Of a DNA stretch of 64,000 bases, positions 6,986 through 41,213 are shown one piece after another (the first letter of the stretch is position 1; every line of letters starts with the position of its first letter). The stretch covers positions 2,240 to 66,239 of the forward strand of contig CAYUTF010000005.1 in the NCBI GenBank assembly GCA_964447495.1, given 5' to 3'. Origin of the DNA: an uncultured archaeon. Lineage in GTDB: Archaea; Asgardarchaeota; Lokiarchaeia; Sigyniarchaeales; SOKP01. The notes beneath the pieces are model-generated. The model was given only the letters and a program-made list of their open reading frames with translations, had not been told where the DNA came from and did not search any database. The position numbers and the translations under genes were made by a program.

Positions 6986-9016
6986 ATGTCAACAACATCA
7001 CTTACTGAAAAGTTAGAGGTTGTATTACCTAAAAGTAAAAAGAATAAACCCCCATCTGATAGTAAATTCATTATTGCTATAGTATCTCCCGCGTTATTAT
7101 TATTTGCTATAGCTATTTTACTACCTATTGCAGTAGGGATAATTATTAGTTTGCGAGATAGTCAAGGCTCAAATTTCTTCGGAAATCAATTCGTTTTAAC
7201 TCAGTATTATAACCTTTTATTTTTTGGAAAGGATGCGAGCCAAACTTTTTATCAATATACCTATCAAACTTTGTTTTTTTCAATTGTTTCTGTTTCAATT
7301 GAATTCGTATTAGGTATAGGATTTGCACTGATATTAAATAAAAAATTTAAAGGAAGGGGTATAGCTCGTGCAACATTATTAATCCCTTGGGCAATACCTA
7401 CAGTAGCATCTGCCACAATCTTTCGTTATAAAATCTTTGCTCCTTTAGAAGATTATGGATTGATTAACAGCTTCTTAGCCTTACTAAACATGAACCCAGT
7501 GCAATTTTTTGGATCTTATGGTGTAGCTGAGACAATATTTACGATTCCAATACTTTTCCCCTTCAGTCCATTCATGGGAGAAATAGAAATTTCTACAACA
7601 ATGTTCACGGCAATTGTAATAGATGTCTGGAAGACGACTCCCTTTATAACATTATTAATTTTAGCGGCTCTTCAGATTGTATCAAGAGATTTATACAAAG
7701 CTGGAGATGTAGCAGGTGCATCTGGATTGCAAAAATTCAGATATATTACATGGCCTTTAATTAAGCCTGGTATAGGAATAGCCTTAGTTTTTCGAATGAT
7801 GCAGGCTTTGAGGGTATATGATGCGATAGTTATATTTCAAGATCCAAGGGTAGCATCTATGACAGTTCAAGCCTACAATGTATATACTAATTCTAAATAT
7901 GGTTTAGCTTCTGCTATTGCAGTATTACTATTTGCCTTAATAATAATGTTTGCTGTTATTATATTTTATTTTACTCGAAGAAGAGAAAAAGGTGAAACTA
8001 AAGGTAATAAAGCAGAAGTTAGTAAAGTTTATGAAAAGTCAGATGATTTGCTTGGTACTGAAGAATATTTAGAAGAAATAGGATTTCAAGAATCAAGAAT
8101 TGAAGCTCCTTCAGAAAGGAAAATTATGTGGTACATAAGAAAGAGAAAATTAAAATCAATAATTTTTTATATAGCAGTTGGGTTTATGTGCTTGTTTTGT
8201 GCATTTCCTTTTGGGTGGGTTGTTTTACATTCATTCAGAGATCCATTCACTTATCCTACTTCTTTTGAAATAATTCCTAAAATATTTTCTATCGAAGCAT
8301 ATGTGCTATTATTTCAAACTTCTCAATTTACAGGTGTTTCTTTTGGTATAGCATTGTTAAATAGTTTAATATTAGCAGGACTTACAGTACTTTTAACAAT
8401 TACCACTGGATCATTAATCGCTTATGCTATAGCAAAATTTGATTTTCCTGGAAAATCTACATTGAATTCCTTCATTTTTTCAATGAATAGTTTACCACCA
8501 TTAATTATAATAATACCTTATTTTATACAAACAGCATTTCTATCAGCATTAATCCCATTCATTCAATTCCAAGACAACATTTTTGCATTAGTACTGCCAT
8601 ACTCTGCTTTCAATTTGCCACTAGCCGTTTTTGTTTTAGTTGCTTTTTTTAACGAGATTCCAGAAGAATTAAGAAAAGCAGCTAAGGTAGACGGAGCTTC
8701 AAATTTCCAAATTTTCAGAAAAATCTTCTTACCTTTAACTGTTCCTGGAATTTTTACTTGTGGGATTTTAGTTTTTATTTCTTCTTGGAATGAATTGTTA
8801 TTTGCACGCATTTTCATCACTACTGATATCAATCAAACGGTTCCTCAGGCAATAGTAAGGTTTGTTTTTAATGATTTATCTCAAACAGCACTTTGGGATA
8901 CTACTGTTACCTTAATGGCTGCAACGTCGTTGGCTACAGTTCCTTTAATTATATTCGTATTAATATTTCAGAAAAAAATAGTGAGTGGATTAACTATGGG
9001 TGCAGTGAAAGGTTAA
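6986..9016 (+). CDS. Fused ABC sugar permease (MalF/UgpA-like plus MalG/UgpE-like halves in one polypeptide)
   Basis: Two complete permease modules, each with its own EAA loop (KAGDVAGASGLQKFRYITWPLIKPG and KAAKVDGASNFQIFRKIFLPLTVPG), joined by a charged linker (about aa 330-380). Confidence 0.8.
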   Translation: MSTTSLTEKLEVVLPKSKKNKPPSDSKFIIAIVSPALLLFAIAILLPIAVGIIISLRDSQGSNFFGNQFVLTQYYNLLFFGKDASQTFYQYTYQTLFFSIVSVSIEFVLGIGFALILNKKFKGRGIARATLLIPWAIPTVASATIFRYKIFAPLEDYGLINSFLALLNMNPVQFFGSYGVAETIFTIPILFPFSPFMGEIEISTTMFTAIVIDVWKTTPFITLLILAALQIVSRDLYKAGDVAGASGLQKFRYITWPLIKPGIGIALVFRMMQALRVYDAIVIFQDPRVASMTVQAYNVYTNSKYGLASAIAVLLFALIIMFAVIIFYFTRRREKGETKGNKAEVSKVYEKSDDLLGTEEYLEEIGFQESRIEAPSERKIMWYIRKRKLKSIIFYIAVGFMCLFCAFPFGWVVLHSFRDPFTYPTSFEIIPKIFSIEAYVLLFQTSQFTGVSFGIALLNSLILAGLTVLLTITTGSLIAYAIAKFDFPGKSTLNSFIFSMNSLPPLIIIIPYFIQTAFLSALIPFIQFQDNIFALVLPYSAFNLPLAVFVLVAFFNEIPEELRKAAKVDGASNFQIFRKIFLPLTVPGIFTCGILVFISSWNELLFARIFITTDINQTVPQAIVRFVFNDLSQTALWDTTVTLMAATSLATVPLIIFVLIFQKKIVSGLTMGAVKG

Positions 9017-28069: not shown

Positions 28070-31000
28070 TTGAAAATGTATAAATATACAAAAAATAAAA
28101 AATTGAAATCGAAAAGAATTCTATTAATTATATCAGTACTATTCATTCTCCCCATAGTTATCAATTTTCTTGAAATGGATTTAGGATTTTACAATTATGT
28201 AGATGATAATATGGAGAATCTTGATAATGATTATCTTAGAAATTCTAATGTTTATAGTAGAGACTTTTCTGGAGATGGATGGGACATATTTATTTCTGGA
28301 GATTACGCATATATTGCTGATGGAAGCTTATACGGAGGATTGGTGGTGATTGATATCTCTGATCCTACTAACCCAGGTTCTCCGATATATGAGGCCACGG
28401 ATGGAAATGCTTTTGGAATTTATGTAAGTGGGGACTATGCTTATATGGGTGTTGGAAGTGTTGGATTGGCTGTGATCGATATCTCTAACCCTACTAACCC
28501 AGGATCTCCGATATATAAACCTATGGATGATTTCGCTAATGGACTTTATGTGAGTGGGGATTATGCATATGTCGCAGATGGAAGTGCTGGATTGGCAGTG
28601 ATCGATATATCAAATCCCACTAATCCAGGACTGCCTGTACATGAACCTACGAGTGATTATGCCTATGACGTTTATATACGTGGGGATTATGCTTATGTCG
28701 CAGATGGAAGTGCTGGATTGGCAGTGATCGACATATCAAATCCTACTAATCCGGGAACAGCAGTACTTGAAAATACTAGTGGATATTCGATGGCGGTTTA
28801 CGTGGAAGGAGATTATGCTTATGTGGCGGATTCAGGGAGTGGATTAGCAATCATTGATATTTCAGATCCTACTAATCCAGGAACACCAGTTTATGCTAGT
28901 ACGGATGGATCTGCCTATAGTGTTTATGTAGATGGGGATTATGCTTATGTGGCAGATAATCATAAAGGATTAGCAGTCATTGATATTTCAGATCCAATAA
29001 ATCCAAGTAAAATTGCTCAAGGATCTCTAGATAAAAATGTATATTCAATATGCATAGATGGAAATTATGCTTTCTTGGCTGGTAGTTATAAGTTTTACAC
29101 GATCGAGATTTCAGAACTTATTACGCCTCTAGAACTATGGTGGAATCAAGATACATCAGGCAATTCGCAAGGAGTATTTGTAAGTGGAGATTATGCCTAT
29201 GTTGCCGACGGAGCTAATGGATTAGCAATCTTTGATATTTCAGATCCTACTACTCTAGGATCATCTGCGTATAGCAATACTGCAGGAGATGCGGAAGATG
29301 TAGTGGTGAGTGGAGACTATGCATATGTTGCGGATGGTGGTGGTGGATTAGCGGTGATCGATGTTTCTGATCCTACTACTCCCGGAACCTCTATTCGTAG
29401 GGATACAACAGGCGATTCAAGAGGTATATTTGTGAGTGGAGATTACGCCTATATTGCTGATGGAGGGAGTGGATTAGCAATTATCGATATTTCTAATCCA
29501 ACCAGTCCAGGCGCTCCCGTTTACAAGGATGATGGTTATTTAACCAAATCTGTGTATATAGAAGGTGATTATGCTTATCTTTCTGCTGGAAGTGGAATAT
29601 TAACCATTGATATTTCTGATCCTACAACCCCGGGAGCATCAGTTTATTTATCTCTCGGAGGAGATGCTAGAGATATATATGTAAGGGGAGATTATGCCTA
29701 TCTTGTAATTTACAGTGATATAGTTACAGTTGATATTTCGGATCCCACTAATCCCACGTTGTTAGATAAAGAGCAGATATATCATACTGTTCCTGAAGGT
29801 ATATTTGTAAGCGGAGAATATGCGTATACCGCAGAAGATTATGGAAGTATGGGAGGGTATATAAAAATCTGGGATATTTCTGATCCTTCCCATATTTCAA
29901 TGGAAGATTCACTATACATTGGAGATACATATGGAGGAGATGGAGCGTTTGAATCATTCGTGACTGGAAACTATATTTATGTTGCAGACTCTGGTTCAGG
30001 ATTACTTGTGTGTGAGGTTCGTGAAAGGGTTGACACAAAAGACCCCGTAATTACACAATCCCCTAGTGATAAAATCATCGAAGCAGGTTATACAGGCGAA
30101 ACATTGTCTTGGAGAGCAACAGATACCAATCCAAATACATATACTATTGAACTTGAAGGAGTTGGTACTGTTGCCGGTCCAACAGCTTGGTTAAGTGGAT
30201 CCTTGGTAACTTATAATATCCCGGATGGATTATCGGTAGGAGAATATGATTACACTATTACTTTTACTGATGATCATGGATTTTATGCTGCAGATACAGT
30301 AAAAGTAACTGTTCAAGATACGGAAAAACCTGTGTTTACAGAATTTCCATCAGATCTTAAAATTTTAGAAGGCTATACTGGAATTAGTTTTTCTTGGAAT
30401 GCAACCGATGCCAATCCTGATACTTATATCATTGAACTGGGAGGAACAGGTATCGTTGCCGGTCCAACTTCTTGGTCAAGTGGGGTTGCCATTACATATA
30501 ATGTTCCCGATGGATTATCATTAGGGTATTATTTCTATAGAATCAACATTACCGATGAATATGATCATTTTTCCACAGCTACAGTGAAATTAACGGTTTA
30601 CGAACCAGATGATCCCATTATTACGGATAGTCCAATCGATCTTGTAGTTGGACCTGTTTATACAGGATTGAATTTTTCATGGACGGCTACGGAAGCCAAT
30701 CCTGACACTTATACTATCGAACTCCAAGGAGCTGGAATTATTACTCTTCCAACATCTTGGTCAAGTGGAGTTGCCGTTACGTATGATATTCCTGACGGAA
30801 TGAAAATAGGGGAACATTTCTTTACAATCAACTTTACGGATGAATTTGATAACTATGCCACAGACACTGTAAAGCTTACTATTCAAGACAATGCCCCTCA
30901 AATCACAAATGCTCCAGAGGATATGGTTATAATGACTGGTTATACTGATGTAGAAATTTCCTGGACAGCAACCGATGAAGAAGATCCAAACACATATACT

Positions 31001-31570
31001 ATTGAACTTGCGGGTAGTGGAATTGTTGTTGGTCCAACATCGTGGTCAAGTGGAGTAGCGGTTACATACGATATTCCTGATGGACTATCTTTAGGAGATC
31101 ATTTCTATACGATCAACTTTACGGATGAAACAAGTAATTTTGTCACTGATCAGGTAAAAATTACAGTACAAGAAGATAGCATTGATCCTGTAATTACTTT
31201 TGCTCCAGAAGATTATGGCTGTTTTACTGGATATACAGATGTGTGTTTCTTTTGGATTGCAACGGATGCTCATCCAGCTACATTTACTGTAGAACATCAA
31301 GATCATGGCATCGTAGCAGGACCAACTCCTTGGACGAGTGGAAATAATGTGAGTTATACCATTCCAGAAGGGCTATCAGTGGGAGAACACTTTTTTACCA
31401 TTAATTTTACTGATGTTGCTGGAAATTTTGCCACGGATACAGTAAAAATCACAATTATTGAGGAAACACCTGTAGAACCTCCTCCAGCAATTCCTTTCGG
31501 AAGTTCATTTTTGGTTTTCATGACAATTTCCATTATTGGAGTAGTAGTGTTCCAGAAAAGGAAAAAATAA
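28070..31570 (+). CDS. Large surface protein: N-terminal TM/signal, about 14 LVIVD beta-propeller repeats, six Ig-like (HYR-like) domains, C-terminal TM anchor
   Basis: Reiterated [26 protein letters not shown] units (LVIVD repeat). These are followed by six modules of about 94 aa (DPVIT..P.D....GYTG..(L/F)SW.ATD.NP.TYTIEL.G.G.VAGPT.W.SG...TY.IPDGLS.G.H.(Y/F)TI.FTD). The C-terminus is [26 protein letters not shown]. Confidence 0.8.
   Translation: [1166 protein letters not shown]
28247..30025 (+). repeat. In-frame tandem coding repeats (LVIVD units, about 126-nt period)
   Basis: For example, 28556-28630 and 28682-28756 differ at only 4 of 75 nt. Confidence 0.8.
30040..31470 (+). repeat. In-frame tandem coding repeats (six Ig-like modules of about 280 nt)
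   Basis: The periodicity is visible in the translated protein, and each module ends in VK(V/L/I)T(V/I). Confidence 0.7.
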
Positions 31571-31807: not shown

Positions 31808-33676
31808 TTGGATAAATTGGAGGAAAAAACTGATCTCAAAAAATCAGAATTAGGCTCCTTATTTTTCTATAAAGCTGTAGCATTAGTAAGGAGGGGAAAT
31901 TATCCAGAGACATTGAAATATGCTAAAAAAGCATATCATGTTGTTCCTAAAGAAGCGTTAAGTCCTCGAATGGTTGAAATTTTAGCGATGATGGGTCTTG
32001 CTTCTTGTTGGATAGGAAATTTTGAAATAGGATATCAATATCTAGATGAAGCTGAGCAGAAATTAAATAACCTAATTGATATTTCAGAAAAAAGACGGAT
32101 TCTTCTGGAAACAATGATATATGCTGATAGGAATTGTGGTTATATGCAACAAGGAAAAAGCGATCTATTCTATGAATCCGCAATGAAGCTTTCAAGTCTA
32201 AGTGAACAGATTAACGACAAATATGTATTGGCTCAAATCTATTATCAATTAGGATCGCTTTATACCTTTATTAGAATTGATATAAAGTTAGCTATAAAAT
32301 ATTCTTTCAAATGTCAACCTCTCGCAGAAGAGTTGGGAAATAATACTTTTATTGCTCTCAATTTAGTAACTATTGGTGCGATTTATGTTATAACAGGTGA
32401 TTTAGAAAAAGCGTTATTTTATCACAAGGAAGCATTGAAAAAAGCTGATATTATCATGATCAAAATGTCTATTTTTAATAATATTTCAATGATATATAGT
32501 CAAAAAGGAGATTTAGATAAAGCTTTAGAATCGCTTGAAAAAGCTTTTGAATTAGCCAATAAAGTTAAAGCCCCATATATTTTGAGCACCACATTGGCAA
32601 GTATGATCGAAGTATTAGTTTTAACAGGCAAAAACGAAAGAGCAAGAGAGCATTTAATTACATTGAAAGAGATTGCTAAAAATGAGAAAAGTCAATTTAC
32701 GGAATTACTTGCCCATTACTGTGAAGGATTTATCTTAAAAACAAAGAGTCGAATTCAAGATCGTGCTAAAGCACAAAATATCTTCGAAGAAATAGTACAG
32801 CAAAACGTGATTTCTGGAGAATTGACAATGAAAGCTCTTATAAATCTGTGTGATTTATTAGTAGAGGAATTTCGCTTTACTTCTGAATTGGAAATATTAG
32901 ATGATCTGAGTATATTACTTGAAAAATTAATAACTATTGCAAAAAGTCTAAATTCTTTTTGGATTTTAACTGAAACTTATCTATTACAAGCAAAATTTGC
33001 TTTATTAAAAGGAGATTTGAAGAGTGCTAGGAAAAAATTAACTGAGGCTCAAGATCTCGCCGAGAAAAATAATCTTAAATTATTAGTTGGTAAAATATCA
33101 TATGAGCATGATAAAATATTACGAAATTTGAAGATGTGGGAATCACTTATAGAAAAAGATGTTCCTTTAAATGAGCGAATCGAGTTAGCTGAATTAACCG
33201 TACATATTGAAAATATGCTTCTTAATCGGAAGGTTTCTCTTGAAATTTCTGAAGAAGACCCCGTAATAATCTTAATCATTACAGAAGGAGGCACACCCAT
33301 ATTTTCACATTCATTTATTAAAGAAAAAACATTTGAAACCCAAATTATTGGTGGATTTCTAACAACAATAGATTACTTTATTAAAGAGACTTTTTCTCAA
33401 GGATTAGATCGAGCAGTTTTCGGAAATTATACACTCTTAATGAAATACATTCAACCTTTTTACATAACCTATATCTTTAGTGGTAATTCTTATTATGCCC
33501 TTCAAAGAATTAATTATTTTACTGAAAATTTGAAAAATAAAGATATAATATGGGAAAAATTAATAGTTAATTGTGAAAAGGGTAAAACTATTCGCCTTAA
33601 TGATATTCCTTTACTGGAAACATTGATAAGTAATACTTTTATATACAAAAATGTAGAATTAAATCAACTAATATAA
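31808..33676 (+). CDS. TPR-repeat protein with a C-terminal roadblock/longin-like alpha-beta domain
   Basis: TPR-like helices run through about aa 1-450. The C-terminal segment PVIILIITEGGTPIFSHSF...QIIGGFLTTIDYFIKETF...AVFGNYTLLMKYIQPFYITYIFSG..YYALQRINYFTENL has a strand-helix-strand-strand-helix pattern. The frame is open from 31736 with no canonical start before TTG 31808. Confidence 0.5.
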   Translation: MDKLEEKTDLKKSELGSLFFYKAVALVRRGNYPETLKYAKKAYHVVPKEALSPRMVEILAMMGLASCWIGNFEIGYQYLDEAEQKLNNLIDISEKRRILLETMIYADRNCGYMQQGKSDLFYESAMKLSSLSEQINDKYVLAQIYYQLGSLYTFIRIDIKLAIKYSFKCQPLAEELGNNTFIALNLVTIGAIYVITGDLEKALFYHKEALKKADIIMIKMSIFNNISMIYSQKGDLDKALESLEKAFELANKVKAPYILSTTLASMIEVLVLTGKNERAREHLITLKEIAKNEKSQFTELLAHYCEGFILKTKSRIQDRAKAQNIFEEIVQQNVISGELTMKALINLCDLLVEEFRFTSELEILDDLSILLEKLITIAKSLNSFWILTETYLLQAKFALLKGDLKSARKKLTEAQDLAEKNNLKLLVGKISYEHDKILRNLKMWESLIEKDVPLNERIELAELTVHIENMLLNRKVSLEISEEDPVIILIITEGGTPIFSHSFIKEKTFETQIIGGFLTTIDYFIKETFSQGLDRAVFGNYTLLMKYIQPFYITYIFSGNSYYALQRINYFTENLKNKDIIWEKLIVNCEKGKTIRLNDIPLLETLISNTFIYKNVELNQLI

Positions 33677-33779: not shown

Positions 33780-34316
33780 ATGAGTAAAGGAGAATATCAA
33801 TTCAAAATTTCAGTAGTAGGAGATGGAGCGGTAGGCAAAACTTCTCTTATTAAAATGTTTACAAAAGGAATATTTGAAAAAGATTATATCAAAACTATTG
33901 GCGCGCAATTTTCACGATTTGAAAAAGTAATAGAGAATGATAGCGTAAATCTAGTCTTCTGGGATATCGCTGGTCAAGAAGATTTTGATTTTCTTCAGCC
34001 ACTATTTTATAAAGAGAGTAAAGCTTCTATTGTAGTCTATAGTCTTGAAGATAATGATTTAGGTAGAGAGAGTTTTAATCATATAAAGAACTGGGTTCAA
34101 AATCTAAGAAAATATTGCGGAGAAATCCCCCTGATTTTATTTGCTAATAAGGTAGATTTAATAGAGGAAAATGAATTAAATTTACTGGATATAAAGAACA
34201 TAGCTGAAAAACATAATTTTTTTAGCTTTTCCTTGACTTCTGCGAAAACAGGCCAGGGAGTTAATGAAGCATTTAATCTAATCATCCATGAATTATATAA
34301 TAAGTATAGAGAGTAA
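33780..34316 (+). CDS. Rab/Ras-like small GTPase
   Basis: G1 GDGAVGKTS, switch I YIKTIGAQF, G3 WDIAGQE, G4 NKVDL, G5 TSAKTG. There is no C-terminal prenylation Cys. Confidence 0.9.
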   Translation: MSKGEYQFKISVVGDGAVGKTSLIKMFTKGIFEKDYIKTIGAQFSRFEKVIENDSVNLVFWDIAGQEDFDFLQPLFYKESKASIVVYSLEDNDLGRESFNHIKNWVQNLRKYCGEIPLILFANKVDLIEENELNLLDIKNIAEKHNFFSFSLTSAKTGQGVNEAFNLIIHELYNKYRE

Positions 34317-34547: not shown

Positions 34548-36143
34548 ATGACGAATCCTAACTTCCCTCCCGAAGAGATATTCGAAAACAGAGCTGAATT
34601 TGGTTTATACAATTCAATAAGGATGCTAACCAAGATTATTGAGTCATCAGATGATAGTAATAAAAGAAAAAGTGCGATAAAGTATTTAGGATTAGTAAGT
34701 AAAGAAGCACCAGCATATAAAGAAGAGTGTTTTGATAGTATAGAAAACATTTTAATCTCGGAAGAGAATATTGAAATTAAATGCGAAGCGGCTAAGGCTT
34801 TAGGAAAATTAAAACTGAAAAAGGCTTTAAAACCTTTACTATGGATTTTTGATAAATCCGTAGATAACAACGATTTAAGGCTTTCAATATTAAAAGCGAT
34901 CTATAAAATTACATTTGAAGATGCTGAAATTGAACTCTTCATAAAAGAATTAGATTCTTCTCATATTGAAATTAAGGAATATGTGAAAAATCAGTTACTT
35001 ATCCTCAATCCTGAAGTATTGGTAAAAAAATTAATTAATTCTTTACCTAATAAAAATCTTTCAAATAAAAATAAAGCGGAGATAATAAAGTTAATTGCTT
35101 TTGAAATTTCGAGTATAAATTCATCCTTTGAGGGTTCAAGTTTCATAGAAGTAAAGTATCCCGAAATTCTCTCAGAATTAATAAACCAAAAAGAAGTATT
35201 GCTGACAGAAATAACTCAAATATTGAAGACAGATGATAAAAGTCTACTTGAATCATCAATTTCGATTCTTAGTATACTTAAGGATAATATTAAAGAAGAT
35301 ATTATTAAGTTACTCCTTACAGATAATTTCATCATAAAAAAAAATGCAATTACAATTTGTGGTAAACTTCAATTAATTGAGGCTGCAGACTTAATAGTTC
35401 AAAACTTGGATAATCTCTATAATGAGGTAAGCATAGCTTCAATCGAGGCATTAGGAGAGATTGGTGATCTTACAACTGTACCTGATTTACTTGATATTCT
35501 AAATGTTGAAGATATCAGTTTTGAATATTCTGATATTGATATGAAATTCCAAATTATGGATGCTGTAAAAAAAATTTATTTAAAGCATGATCAAATATCC
35601 TATAAGGACTTATATCAATCTTTAGAAAAGGAAAATGACACTATCAGGGCGAGCATCGCATTTATTTTAGGAGAGATAGGAAGAGAAGAATTTATACAAC
35701 CATTAATACGACTATTGAAGATTAAAAACGTAGATGTTAGAAAAAATATAATAATAGCTCTAGGAAAAATAGGACATATCGATGCTTTAGATAATTTAAT
35801 TGATATTATTAATGATGATAGTGCATATTGGCTTATTAAAAAAGTAACTACTGATGCTATATATAATATCTTTCAACAAAATTCGTATAAGATTGATAAA
35901 AATACTAAACAATTGAAATCGGAATTAAATAAAAAAATAGCTATTATTATTGAGCATTTAAGAGAATCAGAGAAGGAAAATTACAAAGTTAAATTAGGTT
36001 TAATAAAATTCTTAGAAACTTTCGGAGATACAAAAGCTTTAGATGCTTTATTGAGAAGAGTTAATGATTTTCATAGAGTAGTTAGAATTTATGCTTCTAA
36101 TGCGATTAAAAAAATCGAGGAAAGATTGGAATTAGGCAATTAA
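34548..36143 (+). CDS. HEAT-repeat (PBS-lyase HEAT-like) protein
   Basis: Recurring units such as EAAKALGKLKLKKALKPLL, SIEALGEIGDLTTVPDLLDIL, IAFILGEIGREEFIQPLIRLL, and IIALGKIGHIDALDNLI. Confidence 0.7.
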   Translation: MTNPNFPPEEIFENRAEFGLYNSIRMLTKIIESSDDSNKRKSAIKYLGLVSKEAPAYKEECFDSIENILISEENIEIKCEAAKALGKLKLKKALKPLLWIFDKSVDNNDLRLSILKAIYKITFEDAEIELFIKELDSSHIEIKEYVKNQLLILNPEVLVKKLINSLPNKNLSNKNKAEIIKLIAFEISSINSSFEGSSFIEVKYPEILSELINQKEVLLTEITQILKTDDKSLLESSISILSILKDNIKEDIIKLLLTDNFIIKKNAITICGKLQLIEAADLIVQNLDNLYNEVSIASIEALGEIGDLTTVPDLLDILNVEDISFEYSDIDMKFQIMDAVKKIYLKHDQISYKDLYQSLEKENDTIRASIAFILGEIGREEFIQPLIRLLKIKNVDVRKNIIIALGKIGHIDALDNLIDIINDDSAYWLIKKVTTDAIYNIFQQNSYKIDKNTKQLKSELNKKIAIIIEHLRESEKENYKVKLGLIKFLETFGDTKALDALLRRVNDFHRVVRIYASNAIKKIEERLELGN

Positions 36144-36310: not shown

Positions 36311-37807
36311 ATGACTGAAAACCAACCAAAAGAAAAGCAAGAATCCTCTCAATATGAATATTCATTTAATTATATTCAGAAGAAGTTAGAAGGGAAGAAA
36401 GATAGTCTCGGTATGCTCATGAAGGAGATCATCCGAACGGGGATATGTACTGAATGTGGCACATGTGCTGCGGTCTGTCCTGTCTTAGAATGGGATCATG
36501 AGCTAGGAGAACCTAAACTGGTAGGAAAGTGTACGGGATGTGGAATATGTTATAATCAATGTCCACGAACTATAACAGATCCGATACAACTCATGGGAGA
36601 CTTCAAAACAGGTTATGTATCGAACACAAATATTCCCGAAGTCATTGGAGGTCAAGATGGGGGCACTGTGACTTCATTGTTATGCTATTTATTCGATGAA
36701 CATTTAATAGATGCAGCAATCGTTACAATGAAAGATCCTGAAAATCCATGGAACCCAGTTGCACAGATCATAACAACAAAAGAAGATGCTATTAAATCAT
36801 CAGGTTCGATTTATTCACATTCCCAAACTGTTGAGGCTCTTATGGATGCGATTAGACAGGATTACAGGTCGATTGCTTTTGTAGGAACTCCCTGTAATAT
36901 TGATGCCGTTGATAAAATGATGAGTTCTCCTGCAGGAATGCTAAAATACTTCATGAGAGCACATGTATTAAAGTTAGGGCTTTTTTGCATGGATTCATTT
37001 GCACCTGAAGCATTATATTCATTTTTTGATAAAGAAGGAGTTGATCTTAAGCAAGTAAAAAAAATGGATATTAATAAAGGTAAATTTCATTTATACTACG
37101 ATCCGGATAAAGAACCTGTTAAATCATATACCATTAAACAATTAGATAAATTTAAGTCATCGAGTTGTAATTTTTGCACCGATTTAACCGCTGAAAATTC
37201 GGATATCTCTGTTGGATCAGTAGGAAGCGGGCCAAATAAGAATACAGTATTTGCTAGAACCGGGATTGGGGCTGAAATTATTGAGGATGCCGCGAAAAAA
37301 GGATACCTAAAAATTGAACCTTTTAATGCTATAAACCTTAATGCTGTATTATTTTTAGCCAAGCTTAAAAAAGTTTCTCAATATAATATACAGAAACGTA
37401 AAGTATTCATCGTTAAAGATACTATTGAAGAAGAACCACGTATTAAAACAAAACCAGAGGCTGAGAAGTCGAAAACAACGCCAGAATTAGGAGCAAGGAA
37501 ATTTTTACGAGTTACAAAGGATATTAACGAGGAAGAGAATGTTTTAAATATATCTATAACGAATTCTGTTGGCTATGTTTTAGAGAAATTAAAAATAAGA
37601 ATAGTAACCGTAGAAGATTTATTTGAAAGTCGACCATGGATCACGACAATAAAAGAATTATTTCCATACGAAACCATTGAAATTGGATACCCTTTAGAAG
37701 AAAAAGAAGGGAAGATTATTTATGGGAATGTTTTAGTTGAAGCCTCCACAGATGATTTTGGAAAAATATTCTCAAAAACTTTTAAATTAGTACCTAAAGA
37801 AGTATAA
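36311..37807 (+). CDS. FrhB/FdhB-family protein, paralog 3, with a unique C-terminal extension of about 140 aa
   Basis: CTECGTCAAVCP / CTGCGICYNQCP, GGQDGGTVTSLLCYLF, VGTPCNIDAV, CNFCTDLTAENSDISVGSVG. A K/E-rich linker follows, then an unrecognised beta-rich tail. Confidence 0.7.
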   Translation: MTENQPKEKQESSQYEYSFNYIQKKLEGKKDSLGMLMKEIIRTGICTECGTCAAVCPVLEWDHELGEPKLVGKCTGCGICYNQCPRTITDPIQLMGDFKTGYVSNTNIPEVIGGQDGGTVTSLLCYLFDEHLIDAAIVTMKDPENPWNPVAQIITTKEDAIKSSGSIYSHSQTVEALMDAIRQDYRSIAFVGTPCNIDAVDKMMSSPAGMLKYFMRAHVLKLGLFCMDSFAPEALYSFFDKEGVDLKQVKKMDINKGKFHLYYDPDKEPVKSYTIKQLDKFKSSSCNFCTDLTAENSDISVGSVGSGPNKNTVFARTGIGAEIIEDAAKKGYLKIEPFNAINLNAVLFLAKLKKVSQYNIQKRKVFIVKDTIEEEPRIKTKPEAEKSKTTPELGARKFLRVTKDINEEENVLNISITNSVGYVLEKLKIRIVTVEDLFESRPWITTIKELFPYETIEIGYPLEEKEGKIIYGNVLVEASTDDFGKIFSKTFKLVPKEV

Positions 37808-37918: not shown

Positions 37919-38839
37919 GTGCTCCCGTACTTGAAAATTGCATTGATAGGGCTTTCAGGTTGTGGTAAAACAAGCCTCTACTCTGTTGCTTTTGCGGAAA
38001 AAAGTCCAGAAGACACCAAAAAGTTTAGTCCAACAATTTTATATGAAACTCGAAGGCATCCCTTTTTAGGATTACAAGTTGGCATATTTGACTTTGGAGG
38101 GCAAGAACAATATAGAAAAGAGTATATGGAAAAGCCAGAAGTGTTTAGAGGTACTGATATCTTAATTCCTATTGTGGATTTACATGATCCTAAATCTTTT
38201 AAGCAAGCAAAGGAGTATTTTGAAGGGTTATTAAATATTTATCGAAAAAATAATGAAAAGCCGAAAATCTTTCTATTCTTGCATAAATATGACGTTGAGA
38301 ATTATCAAAAAGAACTTCTCGATACAAACGTTAAAATGGCTAAGGAAGCTTTATTAGATTTGTTCAAGGATTATGAGTTTGATTACAAGTTAACGAGTAT
38401 TTATTTACAAGATGAATTAGCTAAAATTTTCAGGGATATTTTAATATCTTCCTATTCAGAGCTAAAAACTCATGTTGAGAAAGCAGAGAAGCAGTTAGAA
38501 GAAATTAAAGCAAAAATTATTATTTCTGATGTATCGGGAAATGTCATAGTACATAATGTTCAAGGCGTGAGTAGTGGATTAACATTAAGGGGAGATTTAA
38601 GAGACTTTATCAATGCTTGCAATACAGTCCGAGAAAATCTTTTTATGTCAGATTCTGCTGAGTTTAAAGGGAGAAATGATGATGGAAAAGAGATTGAACT
38701 CTACATCTTCAAGTATATCATTTCTGTTCTTGTAATGAAATCTGGGGAGATTGAACGTGAATCTCAAGATAAACTTAATATGTTATTGAATGACATGAAA
38801 TTATTTGCTGATTTAATAATTTCAGCCCACACTGAGTAG
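37919..38839 (+). CDS. Rag/Gtr1-like GTPase with a C-terminal roadblock domain
   Basis: G1 GLSGCGKTS, G3 DFGGQEQY, and an atypical G4 HKYD (compare HKMD of Rag GTPases). TSIYLQDELAKIFRDIL resembles the Rag TSIWDETLYKAW segment. The C-terminal roughly 120 aa show an alpha-beta roadblock pattern. Confidence 0.7.
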   Translation: MLPYLKIALIGLSGCGKTSLYSVAFAEKSPEDTKKFSPTILYETRRHPFLGLQVGIFDFGGQEQYRKEYMEKPEVFRGTDILIPIVDLHDPKSFKQAKEYFEGLLNIYRKNNEKPKIFLFLHKYDVENYQKELLDTNVKMAKEALLDLFKDYEFDYKLTSIYLQDELAKIFRDILISSYSELKTHVEKAEKQLEEIKAKIIISDVSGNVIVHNVQGVSSGLTLRGDLRDFINACNTVRENLFMSDSAEFKGRNDDGKEIELYIFKYIISVLVMKSGEIERESQDKLNMLLNDMKLFADLIISAHTE

Positions 38840-38891: not shown

Positions 38892-39533
38892 TTAGGTATA
38901 GAATATTCTATAAAGTTCGTCATAAAGTCTTGCAAGCTTAGAAATTACATCGGGATTATTTTGTTGTAAATAATATGAGAGATAACTTGATAAACCTTGT
39001 GGATTTTTAATCCATTCTAAAAAAGCCTCAACTTCTGCTTTTATTAAAGGATCGATATTAATCTCGCCTACTTTTGATAACCCATTATAACTTTTAGCTA
39101 AATTCTCCGCTTCTTCAGTATCGACATCCGTTTCAATAAATGTAGATTTTGATCCTTTTGATATCATAGCAGCAGCCCTTGCTACAGCAGGATAAGCTAA
39201 ATGAAACCATCCTTTCGCTTTAGGACTGATTTGAGCAATCATGTATTTATCTCCATCGGGTGTAGCTGCCCCAATAAGATGCCCCTTATTATGCCGATTG
39301 GTTGCAATGAATCGTTCTGGTGCCATTTGAACAATCGAATAGCGTATACTTGCTACTGTAACTGATTGAGCAGAATTACTTGTCCAAGATGCTAATAGAT
39401 TTTTTATATCGCTTTTAATATTCCAATTCTTTGTTGAATATAGCATTTTTCCATTGTTTGCAATAATTGCTATAGATTTTGCATCTTTATAATGATGCTG
39501 TAATTTGCTGACCACATTTTTAAAATCTGCCAT
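38892..39533 (-). CDS. Profilin-like protein with a C-terminal extension of about 80 aa
   Basis: The profilin-type pattern SIAIIANNGKMLYSTKNWNIKSDIKNL ... VASIRYSIVQMAPERFIATNRHNKGHLIGAATPDGDKYMIAQ parallels eukaryotic AAIIGHDGSVWAQS ... [24 protein letters not shown]. The first roughly 130 aa match profilin length. Confidence 0.55.
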   Translation of the reverse strand: MADFKNVVSKLQHHYKDAKSIAIIANNGKMLYSTKNWNIKSDIKNLLASWTSNSAQSVTVASIRYSIVQMAPERFIATNRHNKGHLIGAATPDGDKYMIAQISPKAKGWFHLAYPAVARAAAMISKGSKSTFIETDVDTEEAENLAKSYNGLSKVGEINIDPLIKAEVEAFLEWIKNPQGLSSYLSYYLQQNNPDVISKLARLYDELYRIFYT

Positions 39534-39556
39534 CTGATTTCCTTTTTACTTTATTA

Positions 39557-40912
39557 TTATTTACTTATATCTATCCAATTATCGATTTTTTCTAAAAATT
39601 CATATTTTTCTTTGGCACTCAATCCTTTATTAAGTTGAGCACGTTGATATATATTTGCTAATTTACTCATTTCCCATAAGAAGTTAATATGGAATACTAT
39701 AGATTTTATATAATCACGTCCTATTTCCAATGCTTTTCCAATTGAGCGTACATCGTAATCCGCTTCTACAATTTTTTTCAAAGTCGATAAAGTATCAACT
39801 ATATTTGTCATAGGAATCTGTGGAAGGGGTTTTATCTTCACAGTTGGACGCTCTATAAATCTGGGTTCAAAATAATCTCGTTTTAATTCTTCTTCTGCCA
39901 TATCTGGCTCTACATGCTGTGGCTGATATAATTTGTCTTTAATGATCGATACAGAATCTTCTAACTCTTTTTGGGATTGTCGTTTAAACTGATTGGGCCA
40001 ATTTACAATACTATCGATGTATTTTTCTGCAGCTCTTAAAATCGACACTTTTTTTCCGTTTTTATTGGTATTGTTTACTTGATAAATTGGCAAATTTGGT
40101 ATCTTTATTTTTAACCATATATTAGCTTGATCAATTAATGAATACAGGTGCATCGGATCAAATTCAATCGTAGAATATACATCCTTCAGTATGTTTAAGT
40201 TCTCATTAATTGACTGGATTTCTGAATCGGTGAAATGATCAATAAGAAATCTATAAAGTCTCAATGAGATTGAATTGATTCCTGCAGTTGGTTCTATATA
40301 TTTCATTTTTAAATTAGATTCCATTCCATCGGAAATTAATATAGTATTGAAATAATCCCAATGAGCGCTTAAAATCATATGATCGGTTTTTCTAAGTTGA
40401 TACGACGTAGGATCACGGATTTTCTCCATAAAATCTAAGAGAATGTCCTTATAGGGAATAAAAAGATTTCTCACTAAGGTCCCTTCAATAAAGGTCTTTT
40501 TATTTGGTGATTTAAAAGACAAATCAATTGGTAGTTTAATCACATCTTCAGCAATAATCACATCGGAATCATTTTGTAATGTAAGATTTCTTGATGTTGC
40601 TAAACGATCGTATACAAAATCAGAGAGCATTAATCCCGTTAACAATCTACTATCTGTTATATATCTCCCAGATTGAACTTCGAATTTTGTATAATAATAT
40701 CCTAAACCCATAAGATAATATATTATTCCTTTTGGAGTGTGAACTCGTCGTTCCATCCCACCAAAAAAGATTACTAAATCCTGAGAAATTTTTACAACAT
40801 CATGATGAACATAAGTACCCAATGTGGGATATCCTAGAAGCTTACCCCAACTAGGGATTACCAGAAAGATGTTATTTTTAATTAAATCTCCTTTTATAAT
40901 TGCTTTTGACAT
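39557..40912 (-). CDS. Hypothetical protein, apparently co-operonic with the profilin-like gene
   Basis: 451 aa with no recognised motif. Its stop is 23 nt upstream of the profilin-like start on the same strand. Confidence 0.4.
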   Translation of the reverse strand: MSKAIIKGDLIKNNIFLVIPSWGKLLGYPTLGTYVHHDVVKISQDLVIFFGGMERRVHTPKGIIYYLMGLGYYYTKFEVQSGRYITDSRLLTGLMLSDFVYDRLATSRNLTLQNDSDVIIAEDVIKLPIDLSFKSPNKKTFIEGTLVRNLFIPYKDILLDFMEKIRDPTSYQLRKTDHMILSAHWDYFNTILISDGMESNLKMKYIEPTAGINSISLRLYRFLIDHFTDSEIQSINENLNILKDVYSTIEFDPMHLYSLIDQANIWLKIKIPNLPIYQVNNTNKNGKKVSILRAAEKYIDSIVNWPNQFKRQSQKELEDSVSIIKDKLYQPQHVEPDMAEEELKRDYFEPRFIERPTVKIKPLPQIPMTNIVDTLSTLKKIVEADYDVRSIGKALEIGRDYIKSIVFHINFLWEMSKLANIYQRAQLNKGLSAKEKYEFLEKIDNWIDISK

Positions 40913-41213
40913 TGGTGTATGACTTTGATTATCCCTTTAGTAATAGGATGTTAATTATTAATATATAGTTTTTCGAAATGGATAAAGCAATTTATACAGA
41001 AAAGAAGAAAAAAATGATATTTATACTTATAGTTCTTCTATTTTAAAAAAATTACTATAATTTTGTTCTTCTAATATTAATTTGATACCAAGATATCAAA
41101 AATACATATAAGTCCTGAATTGTATAATTTTTAGAATAGATGATGCGTTATATTTCTTAATTTTTTACTTTTCATATGAATGAGATAGTATAAATTAATT
41201 CATTTATGATTTA

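Follow-up and report, generated by a model that had tools for sequence, protein, structure and literature searches.

Introduction

Profilins and gelsolins are the only known regulators of the dynamic lokiactin cytoskeleton of Asgard archaea, with no nucleation, elongation, or targeting factor among them, and the proteins reported to be associated with lokiactin are only profilins, gelsolin-homology proteins, an Arf GTPase, and BAR-domain proteins (bioRxiv 10.1101/2025.11.30.690169). Three profilin-like proteins have been reported in L. ossiferum (PMC9834061), and where extended Asgard profilins have been described, the added sequence is N-terminal (PMC8410842). This study concerns two adjacent genes in a 64,000-nucleotide (nt) stretch of DNA from a Lokiarchaeia archaeon (GCA_964447495.1, contig CAYUTF010000005.1, positions 2,240 to 66,239 of the forward strand; G+C content of about 31%), called the window below. 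One gene encodes a 213-amino-acid (aa) profilin-like protein and the other, directly upstream, a 451-aa protein. What is new here is a profilin that has gained a C-terminal tail and shares an operon with its own partner, a member of an orphan family. A literature search, which did not cover a BioEssays 2023 paper on AlphaFold-predicted Asgard profilin interactions, turned up neither a profilin extended at its C terminus nor the 451-aa family. The locus is cloneable and links a profilin paralog genetically to one protein across an archaeal class, and the 451-aa gene is a candidate for a missing archaeal actin-regulating partner.

The closest described relatives of the 213-aa protein are the Asgard profilins, which it resembles in sequence (E values of 1e-9 to 5e-13) and in a predicted seven-stranded fold. 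It differs from them in lacking the "Loki loop" insertion of the Loki profilins (gaps against 5yed and 5zzb), in carrying about 85 extra residues, made up of a linker that varies and a conserved tail of three helices, in having a near-invariant, family-specific C-terminal helix on the profilin domain itself, and in the constant operon position of its gene behind the 451-aa gene. A second point of comparison is the Roadblock/LC7/MglB proteins and the Ragulator-Rag system, since the core fold superfamily is common to these and profilins (PMC10933270) and a Rag/Gtr1-like GTPase gene adjoins the pair in the window. However, the topology of the 213-aa protein is of the profilin type, its similarity to roadblocks is far weaker than its similarity to profilins, and the GTPase gene lies on the opposite strand and is mostly unlinked.

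For the 451-aa protein, the nearest parallels are the formin FH1 region, Ena/VASP, and CAP/Srv2. Like these, it would combine one or more folded domains with a disordered segment carrying a proline motif, and it is genetically tied to a profilin. The likeness is one of proposed function, by analogy, and not of family membership; formins, VASP, and CAP carry poly-proline tracts, whereas the 451-aa protein has one K-x-L-P-x-x-P and neither an FH2, EVH1/EVH2, WH2, or CARP domain nor any sequence or fold likeness to those proteins. Asgard GelX proteins (Thor 1DGelX, KXH72031.1; L. ossiferum B35_GelX, UYP44381.1) offer another precedent, in which a gelsolin domain is joined to an uncharacterized domain X. 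Thor 1DGelX severs and nucleates actin, and domain X has been described as a predicted coiled coil (PMC7444086).

A profilin domain with a conserved C-terminal tail

On the evidence of sequence matches and a predicted structure, the first approximately 127 residues of the 213-aa protein are a real profilin paralog. A phmmer search of all PDB sequences returned Asgard profilins only, led by Loki profilin-1 (5yed/5yee; E value of 2.5e-10) and followed by Loki profilin-2 (5zzb; 3.2e-10), Odin profilin (5zza; 2.4e-9), Thor profilin (7pbh; 8.1e-9), and Heimdall profilin (6yrr; 0.035). A profile built from 44 homologs gave E values of 4.7e-13 (5yed), 9.8e-13, 5e-11, and 1.2e-9 for Asgard profilins. 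In Pfam, the single protein had no significant match, and none to PF00235 (Profilin) at an E value of ≤1. The initial annotation, made from the sequence alone, had seen a profilin pattern in the first 130 or so residues; the homology bears this out, while the two sequence blocks quoted in its favor fit only approximately, as the first, AIIANNGKMLYSTKNW, has A where the pattern calls for G and M where it calls for V or I, and the second, SIRYSIVQMAPERFIA, begins with S in place of G.

The AlphaFold model of the 213-aa protein had a mean predicted local distance difference test (pLDDT) score of 74.6, with values of 83 to 92 over residues 1 to 120. It placed a helix at residues 4 to 14, a short central helix of 12 residues at 40 to 51 followed by a three-strand insert, a C-terminal helix at 109 to 125, and seven strands in all (18 to 25, 30 to 33, 57 to 60, 63 to 70, 74 to 78, 85 to 90, and 96 to 102). 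In a Foldseek search of the PDB, the best matches were LokiProfilin2, OdinProfilin, and LokiProfilin1 (E values of 1.1e-11 to 4.2e-11; template modeling scores to the target of 0.78 to 0.88), and several of the top profilin structures were solved in complex with actin. Eukaryotic profilins followed at about 1.5e-5 to 1e-3. The best roadblock was MK-D1 Roadblock2, at 2.3e-4, and MglB proteins ranged from 2.5e-4 to approximately 5e-3.

Profilins differ from roadblocks in that an actin-contacting motif of three strands takes the place of one half of the roadblock central helix (PMC10933270). Because the model fits this distinction, the predicted fold is of the profilin type, a seven-stranded antiparallel sheet packed on one face by the two terminal helices. 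The suggestion that the 213-aa protein might be a plain roadblock/MglB protein was therefore rejected: a roadblock would have a five-stranded sheet and a long central helix that mediates homodimerization, the model has seven strands, three of them inserted behind a short central helix, and the profilin matches are far stronger; the structural comparison called for with the initial annotation came out with profilins (1.1e-11) ahead of any roadblock (2.3e-4).

Two parts of the domain stood out. In the alignments to Asgard profilins that bind actin, the strand region shares the signature I(R/K)Y...E(R)..I(A/G)TN...GH, with further agreement around ...NW.... Across the 44 homologs, the C-terminal helix is near-invariant and specific to this family (KAKGW.H.AYPA..RAAAM), the conserved positions being K105, A106, K107, W109, H111, A113, Y114, P115, A116, R119, A120, A122, and M123. 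The N- and C-terminal helices of the domain together present the invariant residues H14, Y15, W109, H111, and Y114.

Beyond the domain, the extra C-terminal sequence had been put at about 80 aa and proved to be about 85 aa and conserved in its distal part. Residues 128 to 157 of the intervening linker had pLDDT scores below 50, and the tail that follows was modeled as helices at 162 to 176, 178 to 190, and 194 to 212 (pLDDT of 57 to 76). Tail residues W174, G180, L181, Y184, L189, L200, Y204, and Y208 were invariant among the 44 homologs. All 120 of the 120 homologs listed were 197 to 236 aa long and therefore all carry the tail, which had no match in Pfam or the PDB. One locus (L017, JAHQWH010000132.1) also contained a 61-aa open reading frame (ORF) at 7247 to 7432 on the plus strand that encodes nothing but the profilin tail a second time (IDPYFKAKVEGFLERIKNPQSLTTYMSNSLQQNDPYNISKLAELYNELYRLFYG); the intact gene lies 1.2 kb upstream of it, beyond two unrelated genes. 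This copy looks like the remnant of an insertion event in which the 3' end was duplicated.

The partner protein and its family

The sequence places the 451-aa protein in an orphan family restricted to Asgard archaea. Its 305 close homologs shared 50 to 75% identity, were nearly all 451 to 468 aa long, and were all annotated as hypothetical, and when 1.84 billion cluster representatives were searched exhaustively with a family profile, only 133 proteins were recovered. The statement that no motif could be recognized in this protein held up in Pfam, NCBIfam, PADLOC, PDB, and Foldseek searches, all of which came back empty. Pfam was empty for the single protein and for each of 42 family members, there was no NCBIfam match, the family profile found nothing among all PDB sequences at an E value of ≤10, and the AlphaFold model had no significant Foldseek match in the PDB or BFVD. 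No formin FH2, Ena/VASP EVH1/EVH2, WH2, CAP, capping protein, or gelsolin match was obtained. A likeness of 80 residues between its C-terminal four-helix part and the Vps28 C-terminal domain (2j9w; Foldseek E value of 1.9) was rejected as nonsignificant and was discounted because a small helical bundle is too generic, and CapZ chains (Foldseek probability of 0.02 to 0.05) were rejected as weak.

The model of the 451-aa protein (pLDDT of 73; predicted template modeling score of 0.58) could be divided into an N-terminal alpha/beta module, a disordered linker, and a C-terminal four-helix domain. Mean column identity in 42 orthologs was 69%, strongest over residues 15 to 160. The N-terminal module, with pLDDT scores of approximately 68 to 89 except in a disordered loop at 106 to 114, was predicted to contain long strands in residues 37 to 97 and a 31-residue helix at 136 to 166, and it carries the motifs IPSWG..LGYPTLG, GLGYYY.KFE.Q.GRYITD.R.LTG, RNLFIPYKD, and TAG. 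Disordered stretches were predicted at 275 to 295 and at 321 to 352, the latter with pLDDT scores below 50. The four helices of the C-terminal domain span 371 to 383, 388 to 405, 410 to 423, and 433 to 450, with R399, I402, K403, H408, L412, W413, N420, N428, G430, S432, E435, and W446 invariant.

A short proline-containing segment had been pointed out in the 451-aa protein before any comparison was made. This segment, RPTVKIKPLPQIP, is present at residues 355 to 367 and lies within a motif conserved across the family, for which the consensus is F-E-L-R-T-M-K ... K-x-L-P-x-x-P, with K361, P364, and P367 invariant in the 42 orthologs. Every paralog clade of the family retains the pattern F-E-L-x-T-(M/L)-K…K-x-L-P-x-x-P. 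The K-x-L-P-x-x-P element formally fits +xxPxxP, the pattern of SH3 class I ligands, and is not a poly-proline tract.

Within the family, several types could be told apart: (a) the window type, of 450 to 470 aa; (b) paralogs of 618 to 708 aa in which the same core has Glu/Arg/Lys repeats (e.g., EKERLEKERLEKE) on both sides, and which often share a metagenome-assembled genome (MAG) with type (a); (c) a small group of 480 aa; (d) more distant full-length members; and (e) proteins of 340 to 510 aa from Heimdall-, Hod-, Wukong-, and Odinarchaeota-labeled MAGs that have the N-terminal module only, placed at the C terminus behind a small helical domain and a charged coil. One short-form protein, P0310 (MFX0090393.1; locus L088, 6001 to 7530; 509 aa; Hodarchaeota labeled), begins with a gelsolin-like domain, continues through a charged coil into a small helical domain, and ends with the N-terminal module of the 451-aa family. 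Its gelsolin-like domain matched Thor 2DGel3 (7c2h; E value of 1e-4), a 94-residue gelsolin-like protein (7c2f; 1.9e-3), and adseverin (6.5e-3), and Gelsolin was its top Pfam match (0.14). Compared by description only, P0310 resembles GelX in joining a gelsolin or gelsolin-like domain to an uncharacterized region.

Conserved linkage of the two genes

The initial annotation had placed the 451-aa gene directly upstream of the profilin-like gene on the same strand with a 23-nt gap, and the ORF coordinates agree (Table 1). Whether this arrangement is conserved across Asgard genomes had been named as a check, and linkage proved to be conserved among orthologous loci. In a scan that used one genome per species, kept 80 loci, and searched them with hidden Markov models of both families, the profilin-like gene directly followed the type (a) gene on the same strand in 48 of 48 loci with room downstream; at one further type (a) locus, L025, the contig ends at the gene. 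The gap had a median of 20 nt and fell between −14 and +80 nt in 46 of these loci, with 218 and 263 nt in the other two, and the genes overlapped by 4 and 14 nt in several genomes. We infer that the two genes are co-transcribed, because this spacing is operon-like in 48 related loci.

Linkage extended to orthologs as low as 45 to 48% in identity, while the genes flanking the pair varied between genomes, and NCBI locus tags of the two proteins were consecutive in six MAGs. No profilin-like gene lay downstream of any of 29 Glu/Arg/Lys-flanked paralogs or of either of two 480-aa genes. In a neighbor-joining tree of 95 family members, the partner-bearing genes formed one clade and accounted for 49 of its 52 tips, the others being the two 480-aa genes and L025. 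Scaffold-profilin fusion proteins were absent from the sequence sets retrieved.

All named homologs of both proteins came from Promethearchaeota/Lokiarchaeia MAGs, and a 213-aa protein identical to that of the window is also on record, both in an NCBI contig of 73.5 kb and in a Logan assembly. The pair was not recognized as an anti-phage defense or toxin-antitoxin two-gene system: PADLOC gave no match for either protein at an E value of ≤0.1. The pair is surrounded by ordinary chromosomal genes.

Table 1. Coordinates of the gene pair and its parts in the window
Feature	Residues or length	Position	Strand	Basis or remark
Upstream region	301 nt	40913-41213	-	AT rich; precedes 451-aa gene; presumed promoter region of the pair
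Partner (scaffold) protein gene	451 aa	39557-40912	-	ORF; Asgard-restricted family of unknown function
N-terminal alpha/beta module	~10-250	40163-40885	-	Best conserved part
Linear motif in disordered linker (DYFEPRFIERPTVKIKPLPQIP)	346-367	39812-39877	-	Translation, conservation
C-terminal four-helix domain	371-450	39563-39802	-	Predicted helices, pLDDT 78-91
Spacer (TAATAATAAAGTAAAAAGGAAATCAG)	23 nt	39534-39556	-	Purine-rich AAAGGAAA a few bases before ATG of 213-aa gene
Profilin-like gene	213 aa	38892-39533	-	ORF, 3' of 451-aa gene
Profilin domain	1-127	39153-39533	-	PDB sequence matches, Foldseek, pLDDT 83-92
Variable, probably disordered linker	128-160	39054-39152	-	Length and sequence vary among 44 homologs
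Three-helix C-terminal tail (DPLIKAEVEAFLEWIKNPQGLSSYLSYYLQQNNPDVISKLARLYDELYRIFYT)	161-213	38895-39053	-	Conserved; translation

A possible tethered-profilin complex and competing explanations

The reading tentatively preferred here, from sequence and structure prediction, is that the pair encodes a co-transcribed two-subunit complex in which a specialized profilin is tethered to the 451-aa scaffold, so that profilin-actin would be positioned or concentrated. We infer that the two proteins form a physical complex, and the tethered pair would probably act on lokiactin. The 213-aa tail may dock onto a folded part of the 451-aa scaffold, while the terminal-helix face of the profilin domain (H14, Y15, W109, H111, and Y114) could grip the LPxxP motif of the scaffold, with the peptide FEPRFIERPTVKIKPLPQIP as a candidate ligand of the profilin core. 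The same terminal-helix face is the site at which eukaryotic profilins bind proline-rich ligands. These two docking modes could operate singly or together, and either would leave the beta-sheet face free for a lokiactin monomer. In this way profilin-actin might be gathered or placed by the scaffold, in a manner similar to the recruitment of eukaryotic profilin by FH1, VASP, or CAP.

Several observations are consistent with this tethered-profilin model. The 213-aa protein has profilin homology and a predicted profilin fold, and its gene is strictly linked, at operon-like spacing, to partner genes of a single clade. An invariant proline motif sits within a disordered linker of the scaffold, and the profilin tail carries invariant aromatic residues; the moderate pLDDT of that tail in the monomer model fits a docking element that folds on binding. 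Retained actin binding is plausible from the sequence, because the strand signature is held in common with Loki and Odin profilins crystallized on actin. The fusion of a gelsolin-like domain to the N-terminal module in P0310 provides a weak independent hint. Should the two proteins prove to bind one another as well as actin, this would show that regulation by a tethered profilin existed in archaea, and an orphan family of proteins found across Asgard archaea would gain a function.

Other observations weigh against the tethered-profilin model. The profilin domain falls short of the PF00235 gathering score, with weak matches in 12 of the 44 family members (best E value of 1e-3), and the 451-aa protein matches no known actin-binding fold in the PDB, Foldseek, or Pfam. 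Poly-proline was reported not to be bound by Loki and Odin profilins (PMC8410842), and the 451-aa protein has a single LPxxP with no poly-proline tract. Paralogs without a profilin gene beside them also keep KxLPxxP, so the motif is not peculiar to the partnership. Downstream of the distant full-length relatives (three checked) stands a gene for a membrane protein or a glycosidase and not a profilin. The P0310 gelsolin fusion, kept as a weak hint, was not seen again in any of 97 relatives; the same set holds other one-off fusions, to LRR, Alba, and a methylmalonyl-CoA mutase (fragment), which show that such cases may be noise.

A bolder extension of the tethered-profilin model would make the 451-aa family the missing Asgard actin-assembly or -positioning factor, a scaffold of novel fold with its own profilin subunit that hands profilin-bound lokiactin to filaments, an independently evolved counterpart of formins and VASP, with the Glu/Arg/Lys paralogs as spacer or cross-linker versions. 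We consider this extension improbable. The roles that the initial annotation had proposed for the 451-aa protein, namely, a nucleation factor, an actin-binding adaptor, or a membrane linker, are likewise guesses.

Among the competing explanations, the one that best withstands the data keeps the complex and gives up actin. The profilin fold could have been repurposed as a module for binding lipids, such as phosphoinositides, or for interactions of a generic kind, such as docking to a membrane protein, with a noncytoskeletal role for the 451-aa protein. The hyperconserved surfaces are the family-specific ones, the KAKGW.H.AYPA..RAAAM helix and the tail, and these point to a new binding function; in addition, the 451-aa family has no actin-related fold or domain, related full-length members adjoin a polytopic membrane protein, other paralogs of the family function with no profilin gene adjacent, and profilin, roadblock, and longin folds serve as adaptable interaction platforms in Asgard archaea (PMC10933270). 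However, the strand region that contacts actin in profilins retains the signature of the actin-binding Loki and Odin profilins, and the nearest structural relatives are profilins solved with actin, leaving this explanation somewhat doubtful. Should the profilin domain prove to have lost actin binding, the locus would be a clear example of re-use of the profilin/roadblock/longin fold in Asgard evolution.

It is unlikely that the 213-aa protein is instead a roadblock- or Ragulator-type subunit that, together with the 451-aa protein, regulates or anchors the neighboring Rag/Gtr1-like GTPase. The convergent neighbor is indeed a Gtr1/RagA-family GTPase (Pfam E value of 1.3e-23), in 15 related loci it is 82 to 95% identical and either adjoins the pair or lies within approximately 2.5 kb, and the profilin core fold is common with roadblocks, as reflected in Foldseek matches to MK-D1 roadblocks and MglB (2e-4 to 5e-3), in weak Pfam Robl_LC7 matches in 9 of 44 family members (best E value of 0.059), and in the name "regulator of Ras-like GTPase activity (Roadblock/LC7/MglB)" that the Joint Genome Institute gives to one homolog. 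Yet the GTPase gene runs opposite to the pair and is thus not co-transcribed with it, and in 33 of 48 loci the GTPase gene is missing from the neighborhood. Where it is present, its proximity looks like inherited local gene order, because an FrhB-like gene, which is unrelated, shows synteny in these loci as well. Profilins also outrank roadblocks by 6 to 7 orders of magnitude in Foldseek E value, and the model has the profilin-specific three-strand insert in place of the half of the helix through which roadblocks dimerize (PMC10933270).

That the two genes are neighbors by descent only, with no functional relationship, is very improbable: some shared gene order is expected from ancestry because all loci come from one archaeal class, and the FrhB and Rag genes are likewise syntenic in a subclade, but the pair stays together in every one of the 48 loci and at the lowest identities sampled while all other neighbors change, with spacing and overlaps typical of an operon.

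Relatives and neighboring genes

The Glu/Arg/Lys repeats of the longer paralogs, for example, at L067 (3887 to 5815), in P0261 (805 aa), and in P0242, resemble single-alpha-helix spacers. One repeat paralog bears the NCBI name "MAP7 domain-containing protein," probably due to composition only. Divergently upstream of the repeat paralog, 8 of 19 listed paralog loci (L055, L057, L064, L067, L069, L073, L074, and L084) encode a 125-aa protein (MYRIEKIG..FYIKALGTFPPSVA.RFI..F...) with no Pfam match, as at 2601 to 2978 on the minus strand of L067. This 125-aa protein may be a separate conserved partner of the Glu/Arg/Lys-flanked paralog.

Short-form relatives in Heimdall- and Hod-labeled MAGs had no conserved cytoskeletal neighbor in the neighborhoods examined. 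For the family members P0249 and P0257, the next gene (L089, 5424 to 6152; L090, 5495 to 6166) begins after 49 and 54 nt, respectively, and encodes a protein of approximately 223 to 242 aa, which in L089 is a polytopic membrane protein by sequence and in L090 has a YhhN-family Pfam match. Because L089 and L090 are syntenic, the two neighbors count as one observation.

In the window, 52 nt separate the end of the 213-aa gene from the convergent gene for the 306-aa Gtr1/RagA-family GTPase (37919 to 38839, plus strand). The identity of this GTPase across related MAGs (82 to 95%) is far above the 50 to 75% of its neighbors. It is preceded by a gene for an FrhB/FdhB-like protein (36311 to 37807, plus strand) that has 4Fe-4S motifs and a C-terminal extension of about 150 aa with no Pfam match, and the two genes are syntenic in related MAGs. 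Farther away is a gene for a 178-aa Ras/Rab-like small GTPase (33780 to 34316, plus strand; Pfam Ras E value of 1.3e-41), followed by one for a 531-aa HEAT-repeat protein (34548 to 36143, plus strand) with a weak Rap_GAP match over residues 433 to 522 (E value of 0.0078). These two could be a GTPase plus regulator pair. Just upstream of the Ras/Rab-like gene, a 622-aa TPR protein is encoded at 31808 to 33676. A 1,166-aa protein (28070 to 31570, plus strand) with 12 LVIVD repeats (Pfam E value of 9.7e-131) and Ig-like domains is probably a surface protein.

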